The notes under the pieces are model-generated. The model was given only the letters and a program-made list of their open reading frames with translations, searched no databases and was not told the origin of the DNA. Below, one piece after another: positions 3,654 to 29,359 of a DNA stretch of 64,000 nucleotides. Each line of letters opens with the position of its first letter. Position 1 is the first letter of the stretch. Origin of the DNA: Nitrosopumilaceae archaeon (lineage in GTDB: Archaea; Thermoproteota; Nitrososphaeria; Nitrososphaerales; Nitrosopumilaceae); assembly GCA_965200155.1 (NCBI GenBank), contig CBDATR010000043.1:65858-129857 (forward strand), written 5' to 3'. The position numbers and the translations under genes were made by a program.

Positions 3654-4108
3654 ACCTGGTATTACAAAATTAGGTCTTAACTTTTCTGTTTCATACGAGT
3701 CTGTGTGGGAAAACCCATGATATTAGGTCAATTGCTCGTATCTAACAACTTGGTTTAGACGTGCAGGGTGGGAGAAGTGATTCTGCGCATACGGTCTAAT
3801 AATCGCGTGAATTCATACCGACGATTACTAAACTCCAAACATATTTAGATGATTCTATCCACTGCTGGTGTATTGGAGAGTCTAATGCATACAATTGAGA
3901 TCATACGTTCCAAGATACATGAGCATGAATCAGTTTTATCACAGAATGAAAGCATGACTAGATATGTGTTAGTAGATCCATTGCTTCAAGGATTAGGTTG
4001 GGACTTGTCTGATCCAAATCAGGTAGAAACAGAAGTACATATCAATAAGAACAGTTATTTGGATTATATGTTGGGAAGAAAAATAATAATCGAAGCGAAA
4101 AAATTAGG

Positions 4109-5848: not shown

Positions 5849-6024
5849 AAATTAGGTACTCGTTTGGATGATTCTCGTGAGCAATTACTTGGTTACATGA
5901 AAGATGAAAAAGAACTCCAATATGGTATACTCACCAATGGTAATTACTGGCGAATATTCACACCCAATTCGACCTCTATAAGTTGTGAATGTGAAATTAA
6001 AAGTAGTGATGTTGGAAATACATT

Positions 6025-8145: not shown

Positions 8146-9073
8146 CTATTCCACATAATGATGATGAACCAAATCATCATAGAATCTGACCGATTTTATA
8201 TTAACAAACTCCAGCATTCCATACCTTGATAGCTCCCTCCCAAATCCACTATGCTTTATCCCACCAAAGGGAATTCTGGGATCTGATACGACCACATTAT
8301 TCACGCTAACTATTCCTGATTCAATGCGCCTCGATATCTTTTCTGCCTTCTGTAAGTTCTTTGTCCATATACTGGCACCCAGACCAAACTCAATATCATT
8401 GGCAAGTCTTATGGCCTCGTTTTCATCCTCGACTATAGTTATGGGTGCAACAGGTCCAAAGGTCTCCTCACTGGTAATCCTCATATTTGATTCTATATTG
8501 GTAAGTATGGTCGGCTTGTAAAAGAACCCGTCCCTGTCCATTTGCGAGCCTCCCAAAAGTATCTCTGCTCCCTTCTCCTTTGCATCCTCCACAATCCCAG
8601 AAATGGTATCAAGGCTATCTTTGCTTGAGAGGGGGCCAATATCTGTCTCCAATGATGCAGGATCCCCAACTCTCAACTGTGACGTCTTTTTAACAAACAT
8701 CTCTATGAAATCCTTGGCAACACTCTTACTCACAAAGAACCGCTTTGATGCCACACAGCTCTGCCCGCAATTGATAAATCTGCCCTTTACGGCTCCTTCG
8801 GCTGCCTTCTCTACTATTGCATCATCTAATACTATGAAGGGATCACTACCTCCCAGCTCCAGGACACATTTTTTCAGGTTCCTGGCTGCTCTTTGGCCCA
8901 CCTTTGCCCCTGCATTTGTACTTCCAGTAAAAGTGACAGCATTCACGTCCGAGTCAATCAGGTGATTCGCCGAGTCCACACTACCGACGACTGTCTGAAA
9001 TATTCCCTCGGGTATACCTGATTCAGTAAACGCCTTTTCTATCTCCAATCCAGATTGCAATGTAACCCTGGAC
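8146..9073 (-). pseudogene. NAD(P)-dependent aldehyde dehydrogenase (succinate-semialdehyde dehydrogenase-like), 5'-truncated
   Basis: FTGST, LELGGSDP, GQSCVA, EETFGP and PFGGIKHSGFGRE motifs. The N-terminal part is missing at the MITE junction. Confidence 0.9.
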
Positions 9074-9313: not shown

Positions 9314-11767
9314 ATGATCCGCTTACTCACATTAGTCCTGTTACTATCATTTACGGGACTCGCATATGGTGATGGCGCCCAATTCTTCATAATAACAGAG
9401 AACGGGAATATATTCAACATTTTTGGCCCGCCCCCGGCAAGGCCGCCGGGCTTTGACTCTGCACCATTTCTCAATGCTGAACGGATTAACACCGCGATAT
9501 CAGTCACGACAGGGAGTGATGCTGTTTTCGGGCAGGCCGGTTCCATAACTACACTCCCGGCAGCCAGTAGTATGAGAGCTGCCATTATTACAGATTGGGG
9601 AACAGCATCTGATGAGTTATACTCAGCCATGTTAGTGGGGGAGTTACACAAGACCACTACTGGCCAACCCTATCTTGGTGATGGGGTGATCAGCGGTGGA
9701 CTGGATTTACTAGAATATTGTAACTTGCCGTATAACTCAACGTTGGGCTTGGGTGTGGATTGTGTGAATAACTATAATGGTAATGACATGACTCCCGTTC
9801 CAAGATATGGACATGGGTATGTATTAGAGGGTATACCACCGGTTGGCCGTGCCATTGTAAATGTGGATGTGTTGTTCGGAAAATATTATGAGGTGATGTT
9901 CACCTGTCCTGGATGCACAGATGAGTCAAGGGCATATTTTATAGAGAATGTTCTGAGCATGCATCAGTTCGGTGACGCCGGATTCAGGGATAGTCCGGGC
10001 CTAACATTCACACCGGACGCGCCCTTCAAATTCGACCAAACCACTCTTGCCGGTCTAGCACTCGTTCCCGGCACGAATCAACCTGGTCGGGATGCAAATA
10101 ACATTGGTGCATGGAACTGTACCGCCACCGACTGTGACTATGGAAGTATTTATGCGACTAAGTGGAAATCACTACTCCCTGGATGGAATAGCATACAGCA
10201 TGGAACACCCGGAAACTTTGCGATCATAACGATTGATCCCGGAACGGGTGCAAAACTCCAGTTACGGGAAGGGAATAGTACGGATGGCTCCTGCTGTTTT
10301 GGCTTTGATGGAGGCTTGTACAATCATATTGGAAGTGCCGCGGTAATCCATGATACCGACAGGCATGTAATGATAGTCCCGAACGGCGGCTCCATACCAC
10401 ATGAGAACCCCATTATTCTAGATGAGCAGAAACTCCAGCAAGAACGTTTACTCAACACACAAGTCGGGTCAGTACCAAGACAGTTCTCGCATAGCCAGGA
10501 TGGTGACCCACTATACAATGGACTATACTATGATGAGAATGGTTCATGGCCGCCATATCATGTTAGACTGGTTGACGCGGTTCAGACAGACTTTTCACAG
10601 AAACCGTTCAACATTAACGACTACTTGGGCAAGGGTAATTACACCAATGATGACATGATAAGAATACTCAGGGGTTCCTACCCAATCAATGATCCCATGG
10701 ATTCGGAAATCTATGACATAAGAAATGATGTCATGTTACGTGGTGGTAGTGGAACGTTCCAGTACTGGGACGGCGATGATGTAAAACGACCATATATTGA
10801 TCCCTGGATGAGACTCCAAAAGAACCCCGTATGGGAAGAATATGGTGTGACCCTACCACAGAATAGTTTTGTTATAGTCGACACCTATGCAACCATTCCA
10901 GTAGTAAAGCCAACACGACTAAGTGACACATACCTCTCCAGTACACCATGCGGATTGCCGGGAACAGATGAGGTGAACCGCCTAAATGTGATAGCCGCGT
11001 CAAACTCTGGCGGGTATGATGCTAGTGTGATTGAATTCTTGGTTCTCGCCGACGGTTCCGGCCCCATTGAGACCAACCTAAAACTGCAACTAATCTATGA
11101 GGCCAGTCGTACATACCTGGACTACATAGACGGGAACTATCTGGCCGGTGACTCCATTCATGTACCGATTCTGCCTAACAGGCCATACCTGTGTACCATT
11201 ATAGCCCCAAACATACTGGAATCACAATTCCTCCTGGCTACCTTGCCACATGGCCAGTCATATATCTCACTGGGCGGCATTGAGGGAGTAGTGCCGGTGT
11301 CCGCCGAGTATGTCCAATATATGGGCGTGCAGTCACCGCGGGATGGTACCATTTCCCTGGACATATCAAGTAGAATAGGTGCCAGTGTTAGCGCCTTTGG
11401 AAAGGGACCAATAGGCGCCAATAATACTCAGTGGACGAATGGCTCCATACCCGTTCTTGCAACCATTACAGTAAAGGGGAATGAGAGTCCGTTACTATCA
11501 TTTTCGATAGACACATTTGATATAATAGAAGAGGAGTATAATGATGATGGAGCCAACTGTTATGGCCGGTTCGTCACTGACATTGATTCATCCACATACG
11601 TGCAGAGAACCGTATCCATTCCCGCTTCTTTGGGCGAGCACATTCCAATCGAACTGAAAATAATCACACAGGACACACTGACTGACATTCCCTTCTGTGG
11701 CGGAGTGACAAAGGAGAGTATTCTCATCCAATATATCTTACATACCTTTGCCATTGATGTTAGGTAA
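9314..11767 (+). CDS. Large secreted protein (putative adhesin / pilus-associated), paralog family A
   Basis: Signal peptide; QFFIITENGNIF..GP..RPP, TDW, CxxC, YDxRN and AGDSIHVPILP motifs shared with 14984 and partly 12285. Confidence 0.8.
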   Translation: MIRLLTLVLLLSFTGLAYGDGAQFFIITENGNIFNIFGPPPARPPGFDSAPFLNAERINTAISVTTGSDAVFGQAGSITTLPAASSMRAAIITDWGTASDELYSAMLVGELHKTTTGQPYLGDGVISGGLDLLEYCNLPYNSTLGLGVDCVNNYNGNDMTPVPRYGHGYVLEGIPPVGRAIVNVDVLFGKYYEVMFTCPGCTDESRAYFIENVLSMHQFGDAGFRDSPGLTFTPDAPFKFDQTTLAGLALVPGTNQPGRDANNIGAWNCTATDCDYGSIYATKWKSLLPGWNSIQHGTPGNFAIITIDPGTGAKLQLREGNSTDGSCCFGFDGGLYNHIGSAAVIHDTDRHVMIVPNGGSIPHENPIILDEQKLQQERLLNTQVGSVPRQFSHSQDGDPLYNGLYYDENGSWPPYHVRLVDAVQTDFSQKPFNINDYLGKGNYTNDDMIRILRGSYPINDPMDSEIYDIRNDVMLRGGSGTFQYWDGDDVKRPYIDPWMRLQKNPVWEEYGVTLPQNSFVIVDTYATIPVVKPTRLSDTYLSSTPCGLPGTDEVNRLNVIAASNSGGYDASVIEFLVLADGSGPIETNLKLQLIYEASRTYLDYIDGNYLAGDSIHVPILPNRPYLCTIIAPNILESQFLLATLPHGQSYISLGGIEGVVPVSAEYVQYMGVQSPRDGTISLDISSRIGASVSAFGKGPIGANNTQWTNGSIPVLATITVKGNESPLLSFSIDTFDIIEEEYNDDGANCYGRFVTDIDSSTYVQRTVSIPASLGEHIPIELKIITQDTLTDIPFCGGVTKESILIQYILHTFAIDVR

Positions 11768-11879
11768 TGATATAGCACTAATGTGGTGTCAAAAACTACA
11801 GGAGATGTCAGTTTTCCACTCCATGATCAGCCACCCGCTGCAAGATATTCCTGGTTGCATTGATATCATCTTGGGTCTC

Positions 11880-12170
11880 CTGCGTATAGTAACCGGTTCA
11901 TTTGTCCCTTAGTGATTCCTTGGAATGGTGCGCGCACACGTCTGGCTGGTATTCTAGGAATGGGAGTGAAAGTCTATCCCCCTGACCTCACACTTCCGGC
12001 GGAACTCTCCAACGCGACTCTCGCGCATCGTTCCATTCATTCCACGTTTAACAAGTGTCCTATGTAACCAGGAGTCTAACGCGGATATCAATGCGACATT
12101 TAGTAACAGGTTTCCTGCATGGGGCAACAGAGTATCGTCCTGGAATCGATGTCCACACCGGACCAAAGGT
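11880..12170 (-). pseudogene. tnpB: tnpB remnant (no TIRs visible)
   Basis: MNGTMRESRVGEFRRKCE is similar to the 37818 fragment; an ADINA-like segment is present, apparently inverted. Confidence 0.6.
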
Positions 12171-12284
12171 GCCATTATTCATGTGTGGAAAACCGATGTA
12201 GGTTTTGGTGTCACATTATACGAATCCATAAGCAGGCAATCCCCTGACAGCCCATTAACGGAGCAATGATGTAATTATTATAGC

Positions 12285-14987
12285 ATGATCCCACTAATCC
12301 CCGTGATAATGGCAGCCGGGGCGCTGTCAGTCGGAATAATATTGTATGGGGCGGGCGCCGCCATGGAGTTACAGGAACTGTATGATGGTGCCGCGGATAA
12401 TATACATGAGCGGGAGCAGGAGTTGCTGTCTGGACGGTATGAGACCAATGCGCCACCAAACATTCAGGGGGCAGTGATAACCAGTTCATGGACAGATGAC
12501 TCTATCATTACTGGATTCGTGATAACCTGCAATGATTTGGTGCATACCGTTCCAGCTGATATCCCGGTGGCCGGGGGCGTGGTCTTTGGCTTGAATTCCA
12601 CTCACCTGAGTGACATAAACGGCAAAACCGGTCTGTGTGGTAACTCAATAACACTAGAGTTGCTTACAAAGCGGGGCAACCTCTTTGAGATTGTTTCCCC
12701 GGACCGTGATCCAACAACTGATGTGGTATCAACACCCTACATAGAGTACCAGAGGGTGGGGGGACTGGTAGCCAACGGTAACCAGATAGTAGAGGCCGCA
12801 CAGTATAATCATGTCGGTGCCGGTGTTACTTATATCATAGATGACTGGGGCGACTCTCTCACTTATGGTATACCCAACTGGGCACCCCTCCAGGGTGTAA
12901 TGAGGCTGAGCCCTGTTCCTCACCTGTATCTGGGGCAGTTATACACAACACCACCAGGCATAGAGGCCGTGAATAGTGTAGAGGTGATTGCCGGTGATGT
13001 GAGATTCACCAATACAACTGATGCAACCCATGGCAAGTACCACAAGTTCGCCGGGACAGGCCGTGTAATGGTTCACCTGAATGATAATAATAATCACTTT
13101 GTAATTCACATGGTATGTCCGGATTGCCACGAGGATACGCCCGCGGTTATAGGTGGCATACCAACAACGAGCGGCACTTCTGACAGTACGAGCCTGGGGA
13201 CCGGAATAGTGAGTTCGGGAACATCTTTCCCCTGCACCATTAATGGGATAACACATCCCGGTTGCGGTCTCCATCCGGTTCACACGAATAATAGGGAGTG
13301 GCCCCTAAGGCCGGTACCGAAAATAACACTCAGTCATGTAGAGAATCCAGGCATAAACGGGACCGTTCTGCATATAACAAACTATAATACCTGTCCCGGT
13401 GCCGCCCATGATAATACCATTCTGGACTCGCTGAACTCGACTCATTTCAGGCTACTATCAAATGGTTGTATCATGAAAAATTATTCTTATGAGTGGTGGG
13501 ATGGTGATATCAAACTATATGACTCATTGCCGATTCGGCCAGGCTTGTCAACATGGCAAAATCCGTCCGGACACAACCCCACAATCATTCTAAACATGCG
13601 GGGCGGCCAGATTCTCTTACAGATATGGTCTGTGACTCAGGTACAATACTATAATGACATATTCAACCCCACTTTTACTATCACGCCAAGGACTGGTGAT
13701 AATACCAAGCTATTCGTGATTCATGATGCCATGGCGCATCTTGGTGTGTATGCCATCTCTGACTTGCATGACATGAAGAATCATGTCCAGACATACCCGC
13801 AACTACTCAAGAATGGAACGGTTTACAGATTCTCACATAGCCCCGGAATGGACAAGACCGGCGGGTTATTGGGCCACGACTGTATGCGGGGCTTCAAGTA
13901 CTGCATGACTGTATTTAATGCACCACGACTGCCAAGTGTGAATAATGCACAAGGTATAGTCTATGACACCCGTAATGCCATAGAACTGAATCGTGATGCA
14001 CTAGTTCACAATAGGAATAATGTGTTCACCACGAATAACCCGACTCCGGGCGAGGTAAAATATGACTCAACTACTCTAGAATTGATACAGGCATACGGAG
14101 TGATACCAATTACAGGCGGTGTAAAGGTAGATGAGTTATACATTATACCATCATTCCATAGTAACGGGTGTGACCGATATATCGACAAGACGACATCCCC
14201 CCATACATGGACTGCCTCTATGTCACACTCTGGATGGTTACGATTACAATACCTGGAGACACATTACGGCAGGGATAACCCCTCACTAAACGTCCCACTA
14301 CTGCCTAATTTCGGGACACTATGCATGAGAACTCATGGTAATGAGGAATTCAGGCAGTTCAAGATGGATGACTTTTTCATTCAGGGATCAGCCGCATCAT
14401 TTGGTGGGACAAAACACACCCATACGGTAACGGGCACGCTTTCGAATAATCCAACCACAGGTAACATTTCGGTACTGGATACTGATGTAACCCTGCTTGG
14501 CAGTGGCACTACAACGATGGATCTTGCCGTCGATATGGCTGGCCGGGTCGTGATAAGTGGTGTTGTGGATAATGGTGGCTCTGCACCAGACGGGAATGGT
14601 TCTGCCAACTGTAACTGGAGTAATAACAAGCCGCCCCGATCTGCACCGTTACAGAAAGTCACACTATTTGTGACGGTGAATGTGAATGTACCGGGAAGTA
14701 ACGACTACAATGAACAGTTCTTCCATGAAGTACCGCTTTCGGCCAGCCCGGCACCAACTAGTGTCGGCGAGGATTGTAGGCATGTATCAATTGCAGAGTT
14801 CCAGTATCCGGCAGAATTCAAGACAATACCACTCACGTATGGTAGTAATGCGGACATAAAGGTGACAGTTGAAACAAAGGTGGTATTCGCGCATGGTTCC
14901 TCGCCGCTTTATGCCGGTGGTTCTCCCACTGAGACCCTATACGTTGAGACCATTCTAGAGCAGTTAACATTGGTGGTGAACAATTGA
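12285..14987 (+). CDS. Large membrane-anchored/pilin-like surface protein, family A
   Basis: N-terminal hydrophobic helix; LLTKRGNLF motif of archaeal pilin-like domains; CPDC, YDTRN and NVPLLP motifs shared with the neighbours. Confidence 0.8.
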   Translation: MIPLIPVIMAAGALSVGIILYGAGAAMELQELYDGAADNIHEREQELLSGRYETNAPPNIQGAVITSSWTDDSIITGFVITCNDLVHTVPADIPVAGGVVFGLNSTHLSDINGKTGLCGNSITLELLTKRGNLFEIVSPDRDPTTDVVSTPYIEYQRVGGLVANGNQIVEAAQYNHVGAGVTYIIDDWGDSLTYGIPNWAPLQGVMRLSPVPHLYLGQLYTTPPGIEAVNSVEVIAGDVRFTNTTDATHGKYHKFAGTGRVMVHLNDNNNHFVIHMVCPDCHEDTPAVIGGIPTTSGTSDSTSLGTGIVSSGTSFPCTINGITHPGCGLHPVHTNNREWPLRPVPKITLSHVENPGINGTVLHITNYNTCPGAAHDNTILDSLNSTHFRLLSNGCIMKNYSYEWWDGDIKLYDSLPIRPGLSTWQNPSGHNPTIILNMRGGQILLQIWSVTQVQYYNDIFNPTFTITPRTGDNTKLFVIHDAMAHLGVYAISDLHDMKNHVQTYPQLLKNGTVYRFSHSPGMDKTGGLLGHDCMRGFKYCMTVFNAPRLPSVNNAQGIVYDTRNAIELNRDALVHNRNNVFTTNNPTPGEVKYDSTTLELIQAYGVIPITGGVKVDELYIIPSFHSNGCDRYIDKTTSPHTWTASMSHSGWLRLQYLETHYGRDNPSLNVPLLPNFGTLCMRTHGNEEFRQFKMDDFFIQGSAASFGGTKHTHTVTGTLSNNPTTGNISVLDTDVTLLGSGTTTMDLAVDMAGRVVISGVVDNGGSAPDGNGSANCNWSNNKPPRSAPLQKVTLFVTVNVNVPGSNDYNEQFFHEVPLSASPAPTSVGEDCRHVSIAEFQYPAEFKTIPLTYGSNADIKVTVETKVVFAHGSSPLYAGGSPTETLYVETILEQLTLVVNN

Positions 14988-17800
14988 GGGCTGTAATCAT
15001 TCTAGTCATCATTCTAGTATTCATTCCGCCGGTATATGCGTATGACGTACAATTCCATTTCATAACAGAGAACGGGAACATCTTTCTACTATCTGGTCCT
15101 GATGAGCCAAGGCCGCCTAATATCATAGGTGAGACCGCATTTCTCAGTGTTGATAATCCTCCCGCCGGTATGTTCATTGTTACATCGAATAATGGAACGA
15201 TTCAAAGAGTTACACCATTACAGACAGGGATAGACGTGAGTGATTATTCCGGTAGTGATAGAGTAAGAGTCATCACTTATACTGATTGGAACGGTGGCAG
15301 TGTTAGAGAATTCCGTGATCAGCCATTCGGGACACTCTCCAACGGCATTAATGGAATGTACCATTCTAATAGTATGGGATTAATCGCCGATTACAGTAAC
15401 TATACAATGATGTCGGTGATTGATTCGTCCCGTTTTGATCTGGGTAGTGGCTCTGATAATACACTTGGTACACTAACACAGGGGAGTAACGGTGAATACA
15501 CCATTAACATGGCAACAATGAATCGTGCAGGTCTTAATTTCGGGCCGGGATCTGATGCCACTTACTACATCTATTGGGGCTGTAGGGATTGCAATACAAA
15601 TGTGGTTGTGGGATTCGGTGGCTCATCTGATCAGGCAAGACTGCCGAATGATCATCATCCAAGAGGTTGGGAATCAACACAGTCATGTGGTGTATCTGAT
15701 ACTGACACCTGGTCTACCAATTCGGGAACCATAGATGTTGATTATCATATACCCTCAGAGGAACACAGTCAGGCAGGCGATTACACCATAAGTAATAGGT
15801 ATGATGACTTGTCCATTCTACCACAGCATCATACTAGTTCTACTTATACAGATGAGACAGATGATAACCGCCGGTTCGACATGGATATTATAGCTATAAC
15901 CACGTCAACACCCAGAAGTGAGTATCTATTCTCATGCTCCGGAACTATCACCGTTGAGACATGTGATGAACATGGGAGTAATTGTACGACTCAGTCAAGT
16001 AGTGGTAATTCCGGTACCACTACACGTTATACAGATGGCTCATGTACTAATGAGATGAGTTCTCAGAGATCATCATCCCACATGGGCTACATTGCATCTG
16101 CTGATTGTACTGCTGGACCTGCACCATCTAAACCAGCTGATATCAACAACCGTAGCAGTCCTGTAGATATGGGTGGCAACCAAACCAGAGTAACTACAAG
16201 AACATGTAACTATAATAGCAGTCCTACACTAATGGGTACAACTGCAACCATAAGTACAACATGTGATTTACACATACAGACCCCACACTTAACATTGAAT
16301 GAGTCTCTAACAGTGAAGCCGGGTTTGAACATATACAGGCCGGATTCCAGCTTCATAAACCAGAACCTCACTATAATAATGGATGACACAGAGAATGGTG
16401 GCGGGCAGAATGAGCGTATACAGGTATTCCACGGGCCGGATGATATTCTAACAGGTCCATACGACTTTCATTTGAGAACGCCGGAATCCGGTATACTATA
16501 TGATGATCATGACCACTATGGATGGATAGACCATACCAAATCATATACAACCGAGATGCTAGAACAACTAGGATACACCATTAGAGTGTCGATGGCCGGA
16601 TTCAATGACGGACTGGGTACTAGTGGGACGGAACCATACAACCCCGGCCAGCGACTATGCCATGGTGACTGTCTGTTAGGCCTGGAAGGGATTGACGGGG
16701 AGAAGCCAAGACTCATGGTCTTGAGGCAATCACCACCAAGTCATGGAGTCGTTCTAAATGGATTAATCTATGATCACAAGAATAATGACTGGTATAGTAG
16801 TGGATTCGGGTATGGTACTGATGGACTAGTCACTGCAACATCACTATACCTTACCGTTCCCTTCTCTGTTGATACCACTCTAGTGAATGTGTGGTTATTC
16901 AATGAGAACTTTGATCCAACACAACAACTCATATCACCGAATGATGCATTGTCTCCCACAGCTGATCTATGTCACTTACGACAGGCAGGCCAAATTGAAA
17001 TATTTGATGCCGGTCCCACCACCATATCAGCCGGGAACAGTATTCACATACCTATTCTACCTGAAATGCGCTATTCAGCATTCATAGGAAATGGTGAATG
17101 TCACTGGTATGATATTGCCTCACTGCCTTCACCATTATCTAGTATATCATCCGGTGCAAGAATGGTTCCATTGAATAACGGGACTATTCTAGGCGGCACG
17201 TTAACCGTAAAGCATGACGGACAGGCACATGTAGATATCATTACTGACTTGCGTGCCGTTTACCAGTCCGAGATGTACGGGGATGTCATTATAGGAACAC
17301 CGGCAGATATAACACAGTGGTCCGTCCCGCCCCTGAAAGTAAACGTGACTGCAATAGCCCAGGTGAACGGGCTGGGAAGTTCCTGTGGTGATACCGGCAT
17401 GTATTGTTCCCAGCCTATCACTCTAGTGAATAGCAGCGCTCCTCATATAGGCACATACATTCATGGCTCGGTTATGTCTGGTTCATTCACACATGATGAA
17501 CCATACGGGATTGCCCCCACATCTGGTGCCGGACAGGATGAATATGGATTTGTAAATGGCCGGTGTTACGGACTGGAAACCATAATAGCTGATACAGGCG
17601 GCATTATTGCAAGAAGCATACCGGGAATACCTGTCAATGCCGGTGACACTATTGCTCTGTCATTTAATGTAATTGTGATCAGCCCAAGAACCATTCCCGG
17701 ACTAATCGAGACAGAAACTACAGGTGAGATTTGTGATATAAAACTGACCGAGCAGTCACTAATACTTGATGTCAGTACCATGACTGCCACACTGCGTTGA
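14984..17800 (+). CDS. Large secreted protein, family A
   Basis: Signal peptide; QFHFITENGNIF; Ser/Thr/Cys-rich insert; overlaps the upstream stop codon (translational coupling). Confidence 0.8.
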   Translation: MRAVIILVIILVFIPPVYAYDVQFHFITENGNIFLLSGPDEPRPPNIIGETAFLSVDNPPAGMFIVTSNNGTIQRVTPLQTGIDVSDYSGSDRVRVITYTDWNGGSVREFRDQPFGTLSNGINGMYHSNSMGLIADYSNYTMMSVIDSSRFDLGSGSDNTLGTLTQGSNGEYTINMATMNRAGLNFGPGSDATYYIYWGCRDCNTNVVVGFGGSSDQARLPNDHHPRGWESTQSCGVSDTDTWSTNSGTIDVDYHIPSEEHSQAGDYTISNRYDDLSILPQHHTSSTYTDETDDNRRFDMDIIAITTSTPRSEYLFSCSGTITVETCDEHGSNCTTQSSSGNSGTTTRYTDGSCTNEMSSQRSSSHMGYIASADCTAGPAPSKPADINNRSSPVDMGGNQTRVTTRTCNYNSSPTLMGTTATISTTCDLHIQTPHLTLNESLTVKPGLNIYRPDSSFINQNLTIIMDDTENGGGQNERIQVFHGPDDILTGPYDFHLRTPESGILYDDHDHYGWIDHTKSYTTEMLEQLGYTIRVSMAGFNDGLGTSGTEPYNPGQRLCHGDCLLGLEGIDGEKPRLMVLRQSPPSHGVVLNGLIYDHKNNDWYSSGFGYGTDGLVTATSLYLTVPFSVDTTLVNVWLFNENFDPTQQLISPNDALSPTADLCHLRQAGQIEIFDAGPTTISAGNSIHIPILPEMRYSAFIGNGECHWYDIASLPSPLSSISSGARMVPLNNGTILGGTLTVKHDGQAHVDIITDLRAVYQSEMYGDVIIGTPADITQWSVPPLKVNVTAIAQVNGLGSSCGDTGMYCSQPITLVNSSAPHIGTYIHGSVMSGSFTHDEPYGIAPTSGAGQDEYGFVNGRCYGLETIIADTGGIIARSIPGIPVNAGDTIALSFNVIVISPRTIPGLIETETTGEICDIKLTEQSLILDVSTMTATLR

Positions 17801-18377
17801 CTCATGACCGTTCTTATGGGGGCGATAATCCCATGGCGACTTTCCAATCTGTCGTTGGGCACGGCTATAATGGGGTATAGTCACTCTGAGTCCCCAATAG
17901 GATGGTGAGGGATTAGAATAAACCTAAAGGGGATCCGGGGCTCGCCGCCTGTGAGATGGGATACCTGTGTTGAATAATTGGAAATCGATAATTGACACTA
18001 AAACAGGCATAGTGTGGGCTATATGGTGCAGATGGTTCTCATCTCCATTTGATATATGTCGGCAACCTTGTCAGTTTTGACTCCATTATCGGTGTGAATC
18101 TACAGTAGTGAGCCTGCCGATACATGCCGCATTATTTGGGGGCAGTTTTGTTATCTCTTGGTTATGGGCGGCCTGTGTTACATTGTATCAACCACACAGT
18201 TCTAACATTCCTGGTTATGTTCCATTTTGTCCAAGCAACCACTTCGGAACGTCCAATGATAGTCCCAAAAGATGTTTAATTGATACTTCCGGATGTTTTT
18301 TCAGTGATCCTTGGATATTTTGAGGCCACCCTGACCTGTCGTAAAATATTACTTCCTCAATGAAGCCCATGATTCTG

Positions 18378-19322
18378 CTATGTTGAGCACGCCGACCAGC
18401 CACAGGAACAGGACATACATGACTCTGTCCTGATCAACACGCCACCACAACTAGGACAGCCGCCCCTGTATGGCGTGTCCTCCCAGATATCATCCTGTTT
18501 CCCATATATGGCCGTGGGTACCCAGTTCGGTATCACTTTTGTTATGATTCTGTGAATGACATGATGATCCATACCCGGTGGTATTATAACACCGGGCCCT
18601 GATGCGCCCTCCCATGATTCCAGGAACCGGGCGGCTCTCAGGGCGGTCTCGGCCAGTTCAGGTAGTGGTATCTTACTCATGTCCAGCATCCCGCCGAACC
18701 GCCCCTCCCGGATCAAGCAACCGGTATACAGACATGCCATTTCAAAGACATTACGAAATGAGTCCGGCGAGTCATTCCAGTTGACATAGAGGGCGAACTT
18801 GTTCGTATATGTTAGAACATGCAACTGCTCCTGTATCATTGCCGGTATTGTAACACGGTACGGCCCGTTGTACCGGCCCTCCATGATTATTACATCATCT
18901 GGTATGAACCGGCCCGATAACACCAAGTCAGAACAGTCAGGCTCAATCCGCTCTATCGCTGTTCTAATACTGGCCGGATTGGTTGCCGCCCCTCTTAACA
19001 TGGATAATGTGGATGCCTTGATATGTTTCAATGACTCATCGATGCCCCCTGTAATGGTGGCCCGTTTTTGTCTCTCCACTCTCCTGCTGGCACGATACTC
19101 GATGTAACGCCTGCACGCATTGTATAGCCCGGCGCGCATCATTGTCTCCTCTGTTAGATTCCCCAGAATGGTAACATTTAGTGGTGGACGCGCCATTCTA
19201 GTGACATCCGCGGCCAGCTTTGCCGCTATCTCCGGCTCCACCCCTGCCTGTATCATTGCCTGACATATCTTGGACTCATCATACTTAGTAACGGTACCGT
19301 CACGCTTTACACAGGTAAGCAT
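18378..19322 (-). CDS. ATP-cone protein with remnant class II ribonucleotide reductase segments and C-terminal Zn ribbon
   Basis: VKRDG..YDESKI ATP cone; SGRFIP and LAETALRAARFLE resemble NrdJ segments; CPSCGGVLIRTESCMSCSCGWSAC resembles the NrdJ tail; only 314 aa. Confidence 0.7.
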   Translation of the reverse strand: MLTCVKRDGTVTKYDESKICQAMIQAGVEPEIAAKLAADVTRMARPPLNVTILGNLTEETMMRAGLYNACRRYIEYRASRRVERQKRATITGGIDESLKHIKASTLSMLRGAATNPASIRTAIERIEPDCSDLVLSGRFIPDDVIIMEGRYNGPYRVTIPAMIQEQLHVLTYTNKFALYVNWNDSPDSFRNVFEMACLYTGCLIREGRFGGMLDMSKIPLPELAETALRAARFLESWEGASGPGVIIPPGMDHHVIHRIITKVIPNWVPTAIYGKQDDIWEDTPYRGGCPSCGGVLIRTESCMSCSCGWSACST

Positions 19323-19564
19323 TCTTTACCACACCCATGAGTTCTTTTGGCTAACGCGGGTATCATGTTCGCTGCATCAGCCTTCATTATATTACCACAC
19401 TTCTTACACATGTATGATATGATGGTCCCGCTAATGCCGGTAAACCCACTGAAACCATCACAGGAATGCCTGATGGAATAGTTCGATACCTGGTCAGGCA
19501 CATTCCCGTATGCCGAGAACTGATCCTTGCACTGATCACAATAGTATGAAATGGTTATCTTCAC
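19307..19564 (-). CDS. Small double Zn-finger protein
   Basis: CDQC...HSC and CKKC...HGC; coupled between tbp and the ATP-cone gene. Confidence 0.7.
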   Translation of the reverse strand: MKITISYYCDQCKDQFSAYGNVPDQVSNYSIRHSCDGFSGFTGISGTIISYMCKKCGNIMKADAANMIPALAKRTHGCGKECLPV

Positions 19565-20094
19565 TATTCCATGACACCTATATCTACTAGTTTGCCATGT
19601 AACTGATTCACAGCTTCTGAAACGGCATTAATTGAGTTAGCCCCCACACATACAACATTTCCGGTGGCGAATAACAACATGGTACAGTCGGGCTTTCTCC
19701 ATCGTATTATAACACCACTAAAGTGTTCCGGCTCATAGATTGTTCGAGGTATGAAACGGACCACCTGACTTAGGTCAATGCCTTGTGAGAATTTGGATGT
19801 AGCCACAACATTACAAATGTACCGCGTGACATTTCCCACTGGTATATCGTGCTTCTTTAACGTCTCTATCATGGTATCCATGGCGCCAAAGGCTATTTCC
19901 GCGGTGGGCGCCCCGACAGCCACCATTTTTCCAGAACTGAATACCATTACCGTCGTTCTATTGATTCTGAAACGGGCGGCGGGAAACTGTTCCGGCTCAT
20001 ACTCGGTACCCTCTATCTGGTGAACCGTATCCAGGGACAGCGTGGTGCCAATATATCCCGCGCATACTATATTGTGCGGCTTTATTTCAATCAC
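19564..20094 (-). CDS. tbp: TATA-box binding protein (divergent, element-encoded)
   Basis: Two TBP repeats: NIVC..EYEPEQFPA..VFSSGKMVAVGA and NVVAT..IYEPEHFSG..LFATGNVVCVGA. Confidence 0.95.
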   Translation of the reverse strand: MIEIKPHNIVCAGYIGTTLSLDTVHQIEGTEYEPEQFPAARFRINRTTVMVFSSGKMVAVGAPTAEIAFGAMDTMIETLKKHDIPVGNVTRYICNVVATSKFSQGIDLSQVVRFIPRTIYEPEHFSGVIIRWRKPDCTMLLFATGNVVCVGANSINAVSEAVNQLHGKLVDIGVME

Positions 20095-20107
20095 GGCGAT
20101 TCAGAAT

Positions 20108-20130
20108 ATCACTCCCTTAAAAGGCGGGTC
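20108..20130 (-). promoter_or_regulatory. tbp promoter, GAC-N-CGCCTTTTAAGGGAGTGAT class
   Basis: 22/23 identical to 22784-22806, at similar spacing from a GTG start. Confidence 0.7.
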
Positions 20131-20517
20131 ATACACTGGAATGATACGTGGAAAAGAGCCATTCTAGTCCTGCTTGAAATCAATGGCGGTCACCATTCTC
20201 TGGTACATTGATGAGAAAAGTGCGTACTGTCCGCAAAAGCCTCACTGAATTAAAAACCATCATTTCATGAAATGGGTTCTTTGATTGTATTCGTGACTTC
20301 TACCTGGATGTGCATGATTTCCGCCCTGAAAATAACCGGCATTATTCCACGACAATGTGGGTACAATCCTGACGCTTACCATTTCCACAACCCTTGTCAT
20401 ATCTGGTGGGTCTTGCATCCATGACAAGAGTGATGCGGGAATAGTATAAACCGGTTAATACATAAAGAATATACCTTTCATGTTTTGTAGCTAGAAGAAT
20501 AGAATCATAGTATAATT

Positions 20518-21223
20518 ATGAAACGTAAATGTAGTGGATTAATACTAGACATAGAGGGTGAGCTTGTATGCAGTACATGTGGTGCCGTGAGAGGCTATGT
20601 GAATGAGGAAACGCCGAACATGGAGAGTCATGCACGACTGGACTATTCCGGCAAGCTGGTTACACACTCTTTGCAAAAGTGATGAAGCAGGACACAGAAG
20701 GGTGTAACCGCTCATTACTGATTGCCATCTCACAGATACGAAAATTACGTGACGAGTTAGCTCTCTGCCTGTACTATGCCATTTACCTGATTAGAAAGGC
20801 GATAGCCGCGAAATATCTTGTGGGCCGCTCTATTGAGTCATGTTCGGCCGCCGTCGTACTGCTGGCATGTCGAAAGCACGGTGTGAGTAGGACCATACCT
20901 GACCTGGTAAAGGCAACCGGACTTAGACGCCGGGAGATATACCGCACATACTCACAGATGACCGAGAAGTTTGCTGGCTCACTACCTGATCCTGTCATGT
21001 ACATACCACGAGTGGGTACTGATGCCGGTATTACCGATAGAGATGCCGTTAAGGTGATTCACTCACTGAATGGTGTTGAGGTACCAGTACCCGATTGCTG
21101 TTGCCGCGGGCGCACTATTCATGCAAGAGTATGGGTGAAATAGTGGACAGGGAGGAACTAGCCAAGGCTGCCGGTATTGGGGAAATGACCTTGATCACTA
21201 TCACAAGGAAACTGCTATCATAA
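20518..21223 (+). pseudogene. tfb: Transcription initiation factor B, two frameshifts
   Basis: Zn ribbon GELVCSTCGAV (from ATG 20518), cyclin repeat GRSIESCSAAVVLLACRKHGVSRT, and second repeat AVAAGALF..EELAKAAGIGEMTL each lie in different frames. Confidence 0.85.
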
Positions 21224-21965
21224 TTTGGTTAACATGGCCTTTACCTAGAATCAAACATAGGACTAATGAACGTTCAATTCAACCCAGACGGATTATTACA
21301 AGTTCCCGGCGATATATTGACAGGGCTTTCCACTCTATGCGTGATGCCGCGAAAGCCGGTGTCACCGTGACGGTTGGTTTTTAATCATTCACTTTGTTCT
21401 TGTCATTCTGTCACTCACTCTCTCATTTATTCCCGGATTGATCAAAGACCCATCCAGTTGAAATCACGCCCGCCATACTAGAATGGTCTCTATATAACCG
21501 GATGAAACTGCAGACACAAGGAATACCATCCCTGCAAAGCACATCACACCGAACAGAATGGTCCCAATGAATCTCCCGCGTTTCCACTCCTCACCAAAGT
21601 TGCGGCGCACACGGACATAGATTAGGTACGGGACCCACACCAGCAACCCTAGCGTGATGATGAAATTACTACTATTGTTATAATGAGTCTGGTTTATATC
21701 CCAGAACAGCTATAAATACCACAGAATCTGCTCGATCATTCCACTCCTGTCCATCACTCCCACAAATTTCTCTTGGAATATAAGGGCGGACTGGTTTCGT
21801 CTGTATTGGACGCGCCTCGTTGGGCTGGAATATCTGTAAAAGGGATGGTGAATCCTTCATACCATGGCAGACTAAAGGATATCTCGTTATAGTGAGGAAG
21901 AGGAGCCGCATGAAAAAATAACCATAAGCAAGAAAAAACTTGTAATAATATTCATCATACTGGGA

Positions 21966-22244
21966 ATGTACTTTTTGAACCGGGATGAAATCCTGGACAT
22001 GTGGGTCATTCATCTCTGGATTGTAATGGATCCGTTCGTGACACCCATAACGAGTTTCATCTGGGCATGGTTGGAGTTTGCTATTCTGTGGTTCTTTCTG
22101 TCCTTCTTTGACACTCTGGTGCAACTGGAAATAGTATTACAGCCAGTCCTGACTGATTTTACCGAGGAGGTCAAAGAGTATACCCAAATGGTACACGAGC
22201 GTTTGACTAATAGGGTGTTATTAGTGCATAGATATCAAATCTAG
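21966..22244 (+). CDS. Hypothetical membrane protein (possibly the frameshifted tail of a longer gene)
   Basis: Hydrophobic aromatic-rich ORF; no family recognised. Confidence 0.4.
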   Translation: MYFLNRDEILDMWVIHLWIVMDPFVTPITSFIWAWLEFAILWFFLSFFDTLVQLEIVLQPVLTDFTEEVKEYTQMVHERLTNRVLLVHRYQI

Positions 22245-22819
22245 AGGACTTGTGATTGTTGAGGATGCAATAGAGATTCTAAAAGAATCCGGTTCCACAG
22301 ATCACCGAAGAGCAGTACAACCGAATGCGTGAGAGAATCTTGGTCCAATAGCAGATGAGTTAGGAGAACTCAACGAATGACACCCCGAGAAATAGAAGAA
22401 TACGAGAACTTTTACGTGACTTCAACCAATAATATGGAGCAACTTCTGCATAGTTAGGGAACCATTATAGTCCATTTATTGCTGCTAGGGGATGAATACT
22501 GATCAAATATCAATACTCGTTTCACTGTTCATTGGAATTGATGAGCCCCATATCGGAATCATATTTGGAGCTGTTGGAATAGTCACGTGGCACGCCGTTA
22601 TGACAGGCAGGTACCGCCAGAGCGATGGAGGCGCGGTGGCCGTGTCTCAATGTTGCCACTATATGCGGTGTTACTAATTTGGTGGCACCACCCCGGCAAT
22701 ATACTGATAGCTGTTGTCGTTCTAGTGTGTTTCATGAGAACAATTCGCAGTATTGTGCCGATGGGCATTCGGCTTTTGAATATGACTCGCCTTTTAAGGG
22801 AGTGATCAGCTGCCCACAC

Positions 22820-23011
22820 GTGAAGTTAAAAGCTGATGAGGTTGACCGGATTGTATATGTTTCCCGGGACATATTCTATAATGAGAATCCAGCGCCTGAT
22901 GTCCTGTACATATTTACACATGATAATATGAGTCTGGGATTATACCGCATAAAAACTACAGGCTGGCGGTATGCGATTTGTCTGTGTATTGAGGCGTATA
23001 GATATCATTAA
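22820..23011 (+). CDS. Small hypothetical protein
   Basis: In-frame GTG of ORF 22625..23011, directly after a copy of the tbp-type promoter. Confidence 0.45.
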   Translation: MKLKADEVDRIVYVSRDIFYNENPAPDVLYIFTHDNMSLGLYRIKTTGWRYAICLCIEAYRYH

Positions 23012-24027
23012 TCACAAGAGAAGATTACTACACGCACTGGAGAACATGAAATGATTCATGTAATCATTATGGTATTGATGGGCGGTACCCTGCCGAGGCC
23101 GGAACGCAAGCCATTCTGGAAGAGGTGGAGACACTGAGAGTATCCTGCGTCATTCATGAATCTGTGCCCATATGCCTGCACTGTTCCAGGAAGCAATTCG
23201 GTAACTCAATCCATAATCTGGAGAATGGCAAGGGGAACCGCTTGCGGGCAATCTATTACGGCCTCTCCAGTCCTGTGGACTGTATTGAAGGGTAATTTAC
23301 TCCCTGACAACTTTCCTGATCAAGAAAAATGCGTATAGTGATGACAAGGAGATAAACTTTGTAGTGGACGAGTGTGCTTACTGTCATTCTTGTGCGGTTT
23401 CAATGGAGAACAAACTGATATGGAGGTTGACAAACCATTACCGGATAAGATAAAACTACCCCCGGCGAACAGAATCTCCCACTGCCCAGTCATTGGTGCA
23501 GAAAACCCATACAAGAATAACCACTCTACTACCTGGAATCATAGTAGCGTCATGTATGCTTGGATATGTAGCATTCATGCATGATTCATCCAGTGTTGCC
23601 GGAAATGTCATTTTACTCGTAATGGGCGGCGCGTCTACATACCTGCTACTAATGACGCGGGAGAGGGTCCGCATTACGGGATGTAATGGTAGATAACATT
23701 ATGATACAAAGTTCAGAGGTGGGTCAAGAGGAAAAATCAGCACCCGCATTACGGGACAAGATAATTTATCCAGTCGCGTTCACACTCTTGCTTCACTATT
23801 GGTAGAGCCGTGGCTCATTATACCCATGGCAATATTAACAGGGAGTACCTGGTTCCGCTCGGTGGCTGTAGAAAAGAACATGCGTACGAAAGACATACTG
23901 TACAACTATATGATGAGGGTAAACAAATACTGGGAATAGCCAAATGGATGCTAGAGAACGGTGCAAGCGAAGTCAATGTAATAGGAGAGTTCAAGCCATT
24001 CGTTGAGAACAGATCACCTTTGAGTGT

Positions 24028-25074
24028 GTGGTCAAAAACGGAGTGAATGTGATAAAAATTACTGCCTTTTTATGGTACCATGAATTACACTATAACATGA
24101 TAAGAATAAGACCAAATGAATGGTTACATATGGAGTTTAAGGGTTCAGGTAAGATAAACAACACTCAAAAGATATCAGGAACATTATACATGACCAATAG
24201 GAGAGTAGTCATTCAGGGCAGTGACGGTCCCATTTGGACTGGACTGATCAAGGATATGACAGTCTCTGTTGAGAATGATATATGTCATATGAAAGTCGGA
24301 CGTGATGATGTAACATGGAAATCCTCAACCATTCCCGTTTCCTGGTGGGGCAATGCTATCATGTTCTGGAAGAAGGGAACCATTCTTGCACCGGACGGTG
24401 GGGAACCCTCACACAATTACGGGATATACCCGCCTGTCTATAATGATATAACAGAATTGCCGGACTTGATAAAAAATTCTGAATGGAATATACGCTGGTA
24501 TACAAAAGACGAGCTGGAACAATGCGGCATGGGAACGCCGGAGAATAGTGATGGATTTGAGAGAACCGTATACAAGACCAATCTTATACTGGCTGCATTA
24601 CGTCATGACGGATTCCCCCAGGGGCCACCAAACACGCATCTTAGAATGCTCCACCGCCGTCATGCACTAGTCCATGTAACGTATCTGGTATGGGGGTGGA
24701 AGCAGGGTATACGACACATGATGACAAGGGTGACCGGTTACGGCCATTACGCCGGTGACGGACAGATAGCCATGTACCGCCAGCCTCCGGACAAGATGTT
24801 CGAGCCAAAGCCGTTCTCCCCTATCAAGAGAGAGTGGCACCACGAGATCAATCCCGCGCACTGTGGCGGCCATACATATGAAATTCTGGAGACATGTCAT
24901 AGAATGTTGCCAATCATTACCAGGGTAGCCGATGAACTACACGCTGACCCGACATGGCACCCGTACATTAGGTTACGCCAGATATATGAGGCCATACGGG
25001 ATGACAAGGCCATCCCGCCGCCAGTCAAGGAGGCATTACCATTGGCACGGGCGGCAACAGATAACCCGTGGTGA
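24028..25074 (+). CDS. Hypothetical protein with N-terminal PH/GRAM-like domain
   Basis: GTLYMTNRRVVIQG is typical of PH-like folds; a degenerate paralog lies at ~63496-63930. Confidence 0.6.
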   Translation: MVKNGVNVIKITAFLWYHELHYNMIRIRPNEWLHMEFKGSGKINNTQKISGTLYMTNRRVVIQGSDGPIWTGLIKDMTVSVENDICHMKVGRDDVTWKSSTIPVSWWGNAIMFWKKGTILAPDGGEPSHNYGIYPPVYNDITELPDLIKNSEWNIRWYTKDELEQCGMGTPENSDGFERTVYKTNLILAALRHDGFPQGPPNTHLRMLHRRHALVHVTYLVWGWKQGIRHMMTRVTGYGHYAGDGQIAMYRQPPDKMFEPKPFSPIKREWHHEINPAHCGGHTYEILETCHRMLPIITRVADELHADPTWHPYIRLRQIYEAIRDDKAIPPPVKEALPLARAATDNPW

Positions 25075-27187: not shown

Positions 27188-29116
27188 ACTGTTCGTTCAC
27201 TCTCTGGTTGTGGTCGTTACCACAAGAATTATTCAATGGTATGGAATACCTTGGTAAATTCTAAAGAATAGCGCCCGCCATGACTCCTTGGATAAATTTG
27301 TTGGAATATAGGTTTCCCCCTACCGCGCTCTCCCAGAACCTTCCACCGGCATCATTCCAGGAATGGTAACCCCTCCCGCATGGAACTTGATTCTGGTAAC
27401 AGTAATTCCAGACTCACTTTTTATAACAATAATAATGACTGAGTAATATGGGCAAATTCAATGAAGTATTAGAGCAGATACGTCGGGAATCAGGGAATAA
27501 CAAGGAGCTTGGTGACAAGTTTGAGGTGCTCATGGTGGAGTATTTCAAGAATTGTAAGCAGTACGGCTTGGAAGATGTACAAATATGGCCCAAACAAGAT
27601 TTGGGAATAGATATACTGGCGCATGACAAGTTCGGGGAACGGTGGGCAATACAATGCAAATGTCATGATGTTGATTCCACATTACAGTATGAGGGAAATG
27701 TATCCAATTTGTGGTCTGCCGCCGAAATGAATGGTATACAAAACAATAGTCACCACTGCCAAACCCAGCACCAACCTTGAAAAAGTATGTAAACAGACCA
27801 ATACACATATCATATGAGGATCTCGAATCCGCCAATATAGAGTGGAGTACTGATATCATTCAGGCACGAGAGCCCCACAAATTATACGAACATCAAAGTG
27901 AGGCTTTAAAGGATTGTCTGGACGGGTTCACCAAGCATGATCGCGGTCAACTCATCATGGCATGCGGTACTGGTAAGACACTAACATCACTCCATATAGC
28001 GGAAAAACAAGTCGGGAATAGTGGATTGGTTCTATATCTTGTGCCGTCCATATCGCTCATAAAGCAGACTATACAAGCATGGTCTGAGAATGCCAACATA
28101 GAACATCAGTACATGGTAGTTTGCTCAGACAGTACCGTAAAAGGTAAGGAGGATATCTCTGTGACTGATATAGTTGGATCAGTGACGACTGATCATGACT
28201 TATTGAGGGAGCAGTATGAAAAGACCAATAGCGATGCGCGTTATTTTCTGCACGTACCAGTCCGCGGATGTCATAAAGGAATCATTCAGCGGAATGCAGT
28301 TTGACTTGATAATATTCGATGAAGCGCATAGGACGGCCGGAAAACAGGATAAGAGCTTTGCTCTAGCACACCATGACGAGAATATTAACTCTGCAAAAAG
28401 ACTCTACATGACTGCAACTCCCCGTATGTACAATCGGGAGGGCGTGACTGATGGTTATTCCATGGATGATTATAGTATATTCGGTAGACGGTTCCACGAG
28501 TTGAAGTTCTCCAAGGCCATAGATACTGGCATACTATCTGATTACAAGGTAGTGGGACTTCGTATCTTGGCCGATGATTTGGACAAGGCTAGGGCAGACG
28601 CGGGCGAGGCCGATGATTTCACACTGGAGGAGGAGTGTAAGCTGGCATCAATATACAAGTCCATAAAGCAGCAGGATGAGAGTCTGGAACCAAATCTCCT
28701 ACAGCGTATTCTAGTATTCCATAATAAAATACCACAATCTAAACGATTCGAGATTGCATTTCCCAAGATAGTGAAACGAATGGATGGAGAAGGTGTGGAT
28801 GTACGTCATATTGACGGGAATAGTCGTGCACGGGACCGCGCGTCAACCATAGAGTGGTTGAAGAGGGGGGAATCCGATGTACGAATAATATCAAATGTAA
28901 GATGTCTATCAGAAGGAGTGGATGTTCCCGCCCTGGATGGTGTGGTATTCTGCGAGCCCCGCCAGTCAGTAATAGATGTGGTGCAGTCACTTGGGAGAGT
29001 AATGCGAAAGTCACCGGGCAAAAGTATAGGATATGTTATAGTACCTGTAGTGGTATCTCGTAACGAGGCTATTGAGCATGTTATAAATCGCGATAAATCA
29101 AACAAGCTAATACTTC

Positions 29117-29238
29117 GTATGAGTTCACCTGTGTCTAAATGGAACGGGTCATTCTATAACTGATCGCGACAGTTAAAGAGTAACCGGTTACTATTTTGTG
29201 CATAAGATTGGAACCGGTTCCAAGACGTGAACTCATAC
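29117..29238. mobile_element. MITE variant (122 bp) with three palindromic filler replacements
   Basis: TSD aatacttc; +9, +13 and +8 bp relative to the 92-bp consensus. Confidence 0.92.
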
Positions 29239-29359
29239 AATACTTCAGCTTGCAGATGCATTAAGAGCACATGATGACAGGATAGACCGCTACTTCAATC
29301 AGGCGAGACTTGTTTCTGATGGTGGTTCCGGTGGTGAGAGTTCGGAGCCCGGTATAATA

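Follow-up and report, generated by a model that had tools for sequence, protein, structure and literature searches.

A divergent TATA-binding protein and a candidate promoter class on a probable, decaying conjugative-type island of a Nitrosopumilaceae archaeon

We analyzed 64,000 nucleotides (nt) of DNA from a Nitrosopumilaceae archaeon (GenBank assembly GCA_965200155.1; contig CBDATR010000043.1, positions 65,858 to 129,857, forward strand), called the window below, with a focus on a divergent gene for the TATA-binding protein (TBP). The gene heads a conserved operon with a zinc-ribbon gene and an ATP-cone gene and lies beside a broken gene for transcription factor B (TFB). Our preferred reading, to which we assign a probability of roughly 0.55, is that the locus forms the transcription-factor part of a decaying conjugative-type island, whose variant TBP and TFBs would read a promoter class of their own. 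This reading is based on gene structure, divergence, distribution, synteny, selection, and a promoter motif and its location. Two elements are new in this work: the motif, which combines a B recognition element (BRE) with a TATA box in 26 nt, and the ATP-cone protein, which derives from ribonucleotide reductase (RNR) and lacks the barrel.

The window makes up the 3' half of C43, a contig of 129,857 bp in genome G000 (2.38 Mb in 51 contigs, 87.6% complete), in which archaeal amoA is present. Public sequencing runs containing the locus are labeled as sponge metagenome. Relatives are referred to by label (G153, G208 [complete], G317, and G336), and all belong to the same genus as G000.

The divergent TBP and its operon

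The operon consists of three overlapping open reading frames (ORFs):

19564 to 20094, minus strand: divergent TBP paralog, intact, 176 amino acids (aa), GTG start (PF00352)
19307 to 19564, minus strand: zinc-ribbon protein, 85 aa, CxxC...C...CxxC...HGCGxEC; its start and the TBP stop share 1 nt
18378 to 19322, minus strand: ATP-cone protein, 314 aa (PF03477, E = 2.9e-9); overlaps the zinc-ribbon ORF by 16 nt

The TBP ORF matched PF00352 in two tandem repeats (E = 4.1e-39; 132.7 bits against a cut-off of 22.9). Its AlphaFold2 model (pLDDT, 94.8) adopts the saddle fold, with a TM score of 0.93 and a root-mean-square deviation (rmsd) of 1.6 Å against the S. acidocaldarius TBP (1mp9) and TM scores ranging from 0.83 to 0.93 against solved archaeal and eukaryotic TBPs. 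Residues F37, F52, F125, F142, N8, and N95 are invariant across the divergent clade described below and the canonical rows of the alignment; we take these four phenylalanines and two asparagines (of the NVV motifs) to be the residues that kink DNA and contact the minor groove. The EPE stirrup motif is kept as well. Throughout the divergent clade, valine (alanine in one sequence) replaces the threonine of the TGAK motif in both repeats, and two residues are deleted in repeat 1. The best score against the NCBIfam equivalogs for housekeeping archaeal TBPs (NF001592 and others) was 119.6 bits, below the cut-off of 270. Judged from sequence and model, the protein looks functional, with DNA binding and recruitment of TFB and RNA polymerase as predicted activities.

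G000 has three TBP genes, namely, the window copy and two canonical copies (contigs C24 and C34), to which the window TBP is 34 to 35% identical. In a 47-row tree, made by a quick search without bootstrapping and with long branches flagged, the window TBP and nine others formed a clade (SH-aLRT support, 100) on a stem of 1.69 substitutions per site, and all 34 canonical thaumarchaeal TBPs made up the opposite group (SH-aLRT support, 100). Four of the nine companions come from genomes of the same genus and five are metagenomic proteins. The first-pass annotation, made from the window's letters and ORFs, had described an intact, divergent tbp at the head of an operon with zinc-finger and ATP-cone genes. 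This description held up: the family match and high-confidence fold go together with low identity to the canonical pair, the ORFs overlap, the host has other tbp genes, and the window TBP falls outside the group of chromosomal orthologs.

The clade is narrowly distributed. Its profile, run over 401 genomes of the class, scored 259 to 303 bits in exactly five, all from one genus, and at most 171 bits elsewhere. This corresponds to 5 of the 10 sampled genomes of the genus (G000 included) and none of the 391 other genomes of the class, which include three unpublished ones (G283, G132, and G231). A word-based search of 5.8 billion clustered proteins returned five relatives with 47 to 51% identity. 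In a species-level genome collection, close relatives were found only in metagenome-assembled genomes titled Nitrosopumilaceae; the IMG/VR scan gave no close relatives, and the JGI metagenome contigs held no full-length relative above 37% identity.

The order tbp, zinc-ribbon gene, ATP-cone gene is kept in four of the five clade genomes (G000, G153, G208, and G317). In G336, the TBP gene lacks these partners and is flanked by genes for a HerA-like ATPase and a D5-type primase-helicase, with a tRNA-Leu gene nearby. The zinc-ribbon ORF, which had no Pfam family above the cut-off, follows TBP in three other genomes (48 to 53% identity). In all four genomes with the operon, the zinc-ribbon and ATP-cone proteins are encoded by separate, overlapping ORFs in different frames; an apparent fusion of the two in G317 (a 389-aa ORF) was rejected, as its two matches lie in different frames. 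The dN/dS ratios between G208 and G153 were 0.19 for TBP, 0.07 for the zinc-ribbon protein, and 0.19 for the ATP-cone protein, and only three coding differences, all synonymous, separate the operon in the window from that on another strain's DNA contig. These values point to purifying selection on the operon.

Other TBP-like genes occur in the relatives. A second, aberrant TBP of G317 (L057:19285-19848; PF00352, E = 2.5e-40) is divergently oriented 165 nt from the clade TBP and sits on a long branch outside both clades of the tree. G208 encodes a very divergent 172-aa TBP-like ORF (C1:1630858-1631376) directly after an MCM gene and about 1 kb upstream of the island VirB4 gene, and similar very divergent copies are present in G317 and G153.

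A ribonucleotide reductase reduced to its ends

The ATP-cone protein is composed of the ATP-cone, a middle part without an assigned family, and the C-terminal strand and zinc tail of an RNR. PF03477 was its only match among the families concerned (no PF02867 or PF00317 match), so the catalytic ten-stranded barrel is missing. The family comprises 15 relatives with 54 to 65% identity and a mean column identity of 76%. A profile of residues 95 to 314 had eight matches among 1.84 billion representatives, one of them a 626-aa protein with RNR barrel domains (class-II-like RNR). The last ~100 residues of this RNR align to the last ~95 aa of the ATP-cone protein (hhalign probability, 97%; E = 2.5e-11), including the stretch CPxCG...ESCxSCxCGWSAC, and residues 281 to 313 weakly match the end of B12-dependent RNR in NCBIfam. 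The structural model (pLDDT, 73) matched solved structures in Foldseek, NrdR included, through the ATP-cone alone; the C-terminal profile had no matches among PDB sequences, and the middle part had no usable match in the ESM Atlas. We conclude that the protein is best described as an RNR reduced to its regulatory N terminus and C-terminal tail, with the barrel lost. Like class II (B12-type) RNRs, it has an N-terminal ATP-cone, the last barrel strand, and a zinc tail (CPxCG...CxSCxCGWSAC); unlike them, it is a 314-aa protein without a catalytic barrel.

NrdR is a bacterial repressor of RNR genes of about 150 aa, with a zinc-ribbon N-terminal to one ATP-cone. The locus resembles NrdR in linking an ATP-cone sensor to a zinc-ribbon and to the promoters of RNR genes, and the ATP-cone protein model superposes on NrdR with an rmsd of 2.3 to 3.2 Å over 83 to 87 residues. 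It differs in that the zinc-ribbon is a separate ORF, the ATP-cone protein has double the length and carries an RNR tail at its C terminus, and the pair is coupled to a TBP instead of standing alone. No tandem NrdR boxes were seen.

An island-associated promoter signature

Two copies of a 26-nt motif lie in the window:

20108 to 20133, minus strand: BRE/TATA motif of the TBP operon, reading TATGACCCGCC-TTTTAA-GGGAGTGAT toward tbp and ending 13 nt before its start codon
22781 to 22806, plus strand: second copy, preceding a 63-aa ORF (22820 to 23008) without a Pfam match

We had considered this pair as an inverted repeat marking the ends of a transposon carrying the TFB gene, and rejected the idea, since the same 26 nt precede the start codons of unrelated genes and their flanks are unrelated. 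For the same reason, the repeats are likely promoters. Their span is presumably close to the footprint of TBP plus TFB. The TTTTAA begins 28 nt before the GTG of the TBP gene; as this spacing fits the genome-wide peak of TATA-like hexamers at -29, the TBP mRNA is probably leaderless.

Searching the whole of G000 with an extended pattern (ATGA[ACT][CT][CTG]N[CT][CT]TTTTA[AT]) gave 15 matches, each 6 to 26 nt before a start codon. All of them fall on island-like contigs, namely, C9 (three), C12 (one), C22 (five), and C35 (four) and the window (two), with none on the core contigs C10, C24, and C34 (1.29 Mb together). About 12 of the 15 are independent, the remainder belonging to duplicated genes. 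The genes behind the motif are the TBP operon, the 63-aa ORF, an intact TFB paralog, ThyX (PF02511, E = 3.6e-44), the island RNR (whose own ATP-cone match is weak, at 22.5 bits and below the cut-off), a Type ISP restriction-modification fragment, a gene with a weak PAPS-reductase-like match (E = 0.0067, below the cut-off), and genes without a family.

A shorter version, C(C/G)GCC followed by TTWWAW, is found 20 to 22 nt before the start of all five clade TBP genes, whereas the boxes of the canonical TBP genes are of the TATATATA or TTTATATA type. In G000, promoters that have a TATA-like hexamer at -32 to -27 carried CC immediately 5' of it more often on the island than in the core (7/22 versus 9/238; Fisher test, P = 8e-5), and CGCC showed the same direction (2/22 versus 0/238). 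In G208, CC occurred in 17/22 such promoters inside the island and in 7/44 outside (P = 1.7e-6). Island genes, tbp included, share a promoter signature of their own, which we suppose to be read by island factors.

A 34-nt piece overlapping the first motif copy (20112 to 20145) had a contig depth far above its surroundings in two runs, because the motif is multicopy and the 5' ends of Type ISP genes are duplicated. The ThyX gene behind the motif (C35:20890-22482) encodes 531 aa with two Thy1 stretches and looks like a tandem-duplicated thymidylate synthase. Scans with Rfam and for bacterial promoters and terminators yielded nothing useful.

The neighboring TFB gene

The TFB gene diverges from tbp and is readable only in pieces:

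20518 to 21223, plus strand: TFB pseudogene (706 nt), 424 nt from the TBP start
20518 to 20682, plus strand: zinc-ribbon piece (PF08271, E = 0.031; 14.3 bits, cut-off 29)
20679 to 21143, plus strand: cyclin repeat 1 piece (PF00382, E = 1.3e-10)
21095 to 21223, plus strand: last piece, preceded by a short piece in another frame

Compared with intact relatives, the frame changes at ~20680 to 20705, 21085 to 21095, and 21130 to 21140, and the two cyclin repeats do not share one open frame. In the zinc-ribbon, another residue takes the place of the first of the four cysteines (relative to an intact relative on C35). A 13.9-kb DNA contig from another study (X3) spans 18300 to 21400 with 12 substitutions, five of them within the 706-nt pseudogene, and no gaps; contigs of two metatranscriptome libraries also cover the TFB region without gaps. 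In all, the same broken frames and the cysteine loss appear in three other assemblies. Because the DNA contig of the other study and the RNA-library contigs agree without gaps, the breaks are real and the gene is a pseudogene. The first-pass annotation was therefore right about a frameshifted tfb facing away from tbp, and the number of frame changes rises from two to three. Intact TFB paralogs lie on C35, C12, and C9; C35 carries island TFBs at 10578 to 11402 and 43844 to 44635. Beyond the pseudogene, from 21150 to 24100, no recognizable gene remains, and the stretch had no relative in the data searched.

The gene that faces away from tbp is a 344-aa protein of no known family in G153 (an ortholog of the window gene below), a 394-aa protein of no known family in G208, and the second, aberrant TBP in G317. 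Because this gene varies from genome to genome and the dead TFB occurs in G000 alone, tbp and tfb are not a conserved unit; gene order indicates instead that the unit is tbp with the zinc-ribbon and ATP-cone genes. A further conserved neighbor of the operon lies beyond the pseudogene:

24028 to 25074, plus strand: 348-aa protein, no Pfam match

Its orthologs (37 to 39% identity) adjoin TBP in G153 and lie about 1.7 kb upstream of TBP in G208.

The surrounding island

The first 34 kb of C43 hold core genes (ArgRS, ProRS, eukaryote-type topoisomerase IB, and proteasome alpha), and from ~35 kb to the end the contig carries restriction-modification genes, insertion sequence (IS) elements, broken genes, and family-less ORFs, so that the island part is contiguous with core genes. 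The main island features of the window are as follows:

59453 to 61300, plus strand: VirB4-like conjugation ATPase (NF045971, E = 3.5e-32, below its cut-off; AAA_10 and TraG P-loop domains)
9314 to 17800, plus strand: three large ORFs (817, 900, and 938 aa) of no known family, island cargo

The VirB4 gene has orthologs in G208 and G317 (74 to 75% identity), 114 kb and 37 kb from the respective TBP genes. The three large ORFs had no Pfam, NCBIfam, or PHROG match and have orthologs with 42 to 47% identity in the G208 island. This island, at ~1.59 to 1.77 Mb of the G208 genome (~180 kb), contains orthologs of nearly all the large orphan ORFs of the window (817, 900, 938, 360, 348, 444, and 1,500 aa), together with VirB4, VirD4, a VirB11/T2SSE-type ATPase, MCM, PriL, TopoVI, RNR, three TFBs, and the second, very aberrant TBP. 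Its GC content is ~0.50 to 0.55, compared with ~0.44 to 0.47 on the right flank. The G000 counterparts are spread across C22, C35, C12, a portion of C9, and the window, and the island-like contigs carry second copies of RNR, MCM, PriL, and TopoVI. The VirD4 ortholog is on C22, outside the window, in G000 and 4 kb from the TBP operon in G208. PHROGs gave no virus-like matches at the locus.

Two copies of the same rve-type IS lie in the same orientation near the judged ends of the G208 island (C1:1588492-1589349 and C1:1766045-1766902); this placement may be due to chance because the IS is multicopy. The VirB11/T2SSE-type ATPase of the G208 island (L056:6416-8488) has a match to an intein-splicing domain.

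Proposed mechanism and alternative explanations

In the reading we prefer, the island would retain the intact TBP paralog under selection and make it from a leaderless, translationally coupled operon together with the zinc-ribbon protein and the RNR-derived ATP-cone protein. With the neighboring TFB dead, intact island-type TFB paralogs from other island-like contigs would partner the TBP. The variant TBP and one or more of these TFBs may recognize the C-rich element directly 5' of the TTTTAA-type TATA box, extended in G000 to ATGACCnGCC-TTTTAA-GGGAG. This promoter class would drive the TBP operon itself, the TFB paralog, the island RNR, ThyX, and other island genes, and the ATP-cone protein probably couples the program to the ATP/dATP pool. 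The motif-reading proteins, the nucleotide sensing, and the past mobility are steps that we infer. A bolder version of the sensing step is tentative, and we think it rather unlikely: the barrel-less RNR and the small zinc-ribbon protein would form an ATP/dATP sensor of the dedicated TBP, by which the element or the host would switch the promoter class (RNR, ThyX, TFB, the TBP operon, and other island genes) according to the supply of deoxynucleotides (dNTPs). Such a sensor-TBP would amount to an archaeal equivalent of NrdR that operates at the preinitiation complex.

The private transcription module proposed in the first-pass annotation is partly supported: the divergent island TBP and its own promoter motif stand, and the adjacent tfb drops out, as the TFB beside tbp is dead and tbp and tfb are paired in only one of the five genomes, G000. 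The mobile element proposed there is supported by homology of the surroundings to a large island that encodes conjugation ATPases and replication proteins of its own. Several observations weigh against our reading. G000 (87.6% complete) has no PF00589 integrase match, the window and the rest of C43 contain no tRNA, the repeat search found no att repeats, and there is no ParB beside the island TFB tested (C35). The locus is probably part of an old, decaying, integrated island or islands of conjugative type, which may have been mobile in the past. The pieces in G000 may stem from more than one element, given that the genes for VirD4 and the VirB11-like ATPase are outside C43. Both G153 and G208 have ECH, 330-aa gene, tbp as their local gene order, which could equally reflect vertical inheritance of a fixed island. 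With respect to the promoters, a distant 200-kb region of G208 also has CC in 7/30 cases, the borders of the G208 island were judged partly after the data had been seen, and the extended ATGACC motif is not kept in that island (one occurrence, inverted), where the short C-rich signature alone recurs. Contigs of two metatranscriptome libraries from one study cover the ATP-cone gene, the zinc-ribbon ORF, TBP, and the TFB pseudogene (20409 to 20569 is uncovered in both runs of one study), which is a hint of expression only, because such libraries can hold DNA. Finally, extrachromosomal TBP genes are already known from Halobacterium NRC-1 (PMC2121645), which weakens the first-pass interpretation.

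Some of these points fit a domesticated host regulator, in which the TBP paralog and the ATP-cone protein form a chromosomal NrdR-like switch for dNTP synthesis genes (RNR and ThyX), unrelated to transfer, with the island as its mere origin. The motif common to the TBP operon, RNR, and ThyX, the union of ATP-cone and RNR tail in one protein, the local synteny in G153 and G208, the lack of a detected integrase in G000, and an operon under selection within a heavily decayed island all agree with this. However, the motif also precedes the TFB paralog, the Type ISP fragment, and family-less genes; the RNR and ThyX genes concerned are second, island-borne copies on island-like contigs; and the TBP clade is missing from 5 of the 10 genomes of the genus. 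We therefore regard a host switch as possible but doubtful.

The departures of the TBP from its canonical relatives (the clade-wide valine or alanine in TGAK of both repeats, the deletion in repeat 1, and a score far under the NCBIfam equivalog cut-off) would also suit a decoy or inhibitor that sequesters host TFB or blocks host TATA boxes, damping host transcription in favor of the element. Such a role is improbable given that the phenylalanine and asparagine positions and the EPE stirrup motif are kept and that a matching promoter class exists, its own promoter included; long retention in a decayed island also better fits a productive role. Least of all do we favor a nonfunctional relic of a dead element, even with so many broken neighbors (the TFB, a Type ISP gene broken into four, an IS66 copy in two parts, and a truncated aldehyde dehydrogenase gene): the operon ORFs are intact across the relatives, dN/dS is 0.07 to 0.19, and the differences between two strains are only synonymous, which leaves this explanation a very slim chance.

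Our reading matters because separate, sigma-like promoter classes for archaeal TBP/TFB paralogs have so far been argued mostly from haloarchaea. At this locus, the three pieces for a clean test co-occur: a divergent TBP lineage, island-type TFBs, and an island-confined BRE/TATA signature that includes the genes of the factors. Through the reduced-RNR partner in the operon, nucleotide sensing and the initiation of transcription in archaea may be linked in a way not reported before, and the system is open to tests with recombinant proteins that do not require the symbiont in culture.

Relation to known systems

Basal factors borne by elements are already known, as TBP and TFB on haloarchaeal plasmids and as TFB on thaumarchaeal integrative and conjugative elements (ICEs), so the general idea has precedents. 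In Halobacterium NRC-1, four tbp genes lie on pNRC100 and one tbp and two tfb genes on pNRC200, and TBP-TFB pairs have been proposed to read different promoter classes (PMC2121645). Our locus shares with NRC-1 the extra TBP/TFB paralogs on accessory DNA and the idea of pair-specific promoter classes. It differs in belonging to another phylum, in being an integrated island, and in a far more divergent TBP (34 to 35% identity to the host copies); moreover, tbp is in an operon with an ATP-cone protein gene, and the sequence itself reveals a candidate promoter class.

For thaumarchaeal ICEs, PMC6563490 states that all of its elements encode TFIIB homologs, mostly upstream of ParB, and PMC5797428 describes divergent TFIIB copies in a provirus and two ICEs, for which it proposes a change in promoter specificity. 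Neither main text contains "TBP" or "TATA"; the supplements may list such genes. Like these ICEs, which are thaumarchaeal islands with VirB4- and VirD4-type ATPases and divergent TFB genes, the island has a VirB4-type ATPase and TFB genes, the VirD4 ortholog of G000 being on C22; unlike them, it showed no ParB beside TFB, and searches for an integrase and for att sites were negative. A review (PMC5569661) states that archaeal viruses seem to depend on the TBP and TFB of the host. The comparison with the sigma factors of phages, made in the first-pass annotation, and with those of plasmids holds as an analogy only: an element-encoded initiation factor would redirect the host RNA polymerase, and the proteins are unrelated.

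Other features of the contig

The window contains a Type ISP restriction-modification gene in four consecutive ORFs (27448 to 32227; Mrr_cat, ResIII, ResIII/Helicase_C, and coupler/methylase/specificity). An intact 1,382-aa relative adjoins the TBP operon in G153, and C43 has two more such genes or fragments in its part upstream of the window. Three IS copies with DDE_Tnp_4 transposases and two of the IS66 family, of which one is broken into two ORFs, are located at 2550 to 7312, 42823 to 44443, and 56160 to 57326. The distance from topoisomerase IB to tbp varies among genomes and was set aside as uninformative, given the IS-driven rearrangement. An aldehyde dehydrogenase ORF (8146 to 9060) is 5' truncated, as it covers only positions 168 to 461 of the Pfam model. 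Upstream of the window (C43:11863-14661), a 932-aa protein consists almost entirely of collagen triple-helix repeats (PF01391, E = 7.6e-128) and adjoins a TPR protein; both are eukaryote-like repeat proteins.

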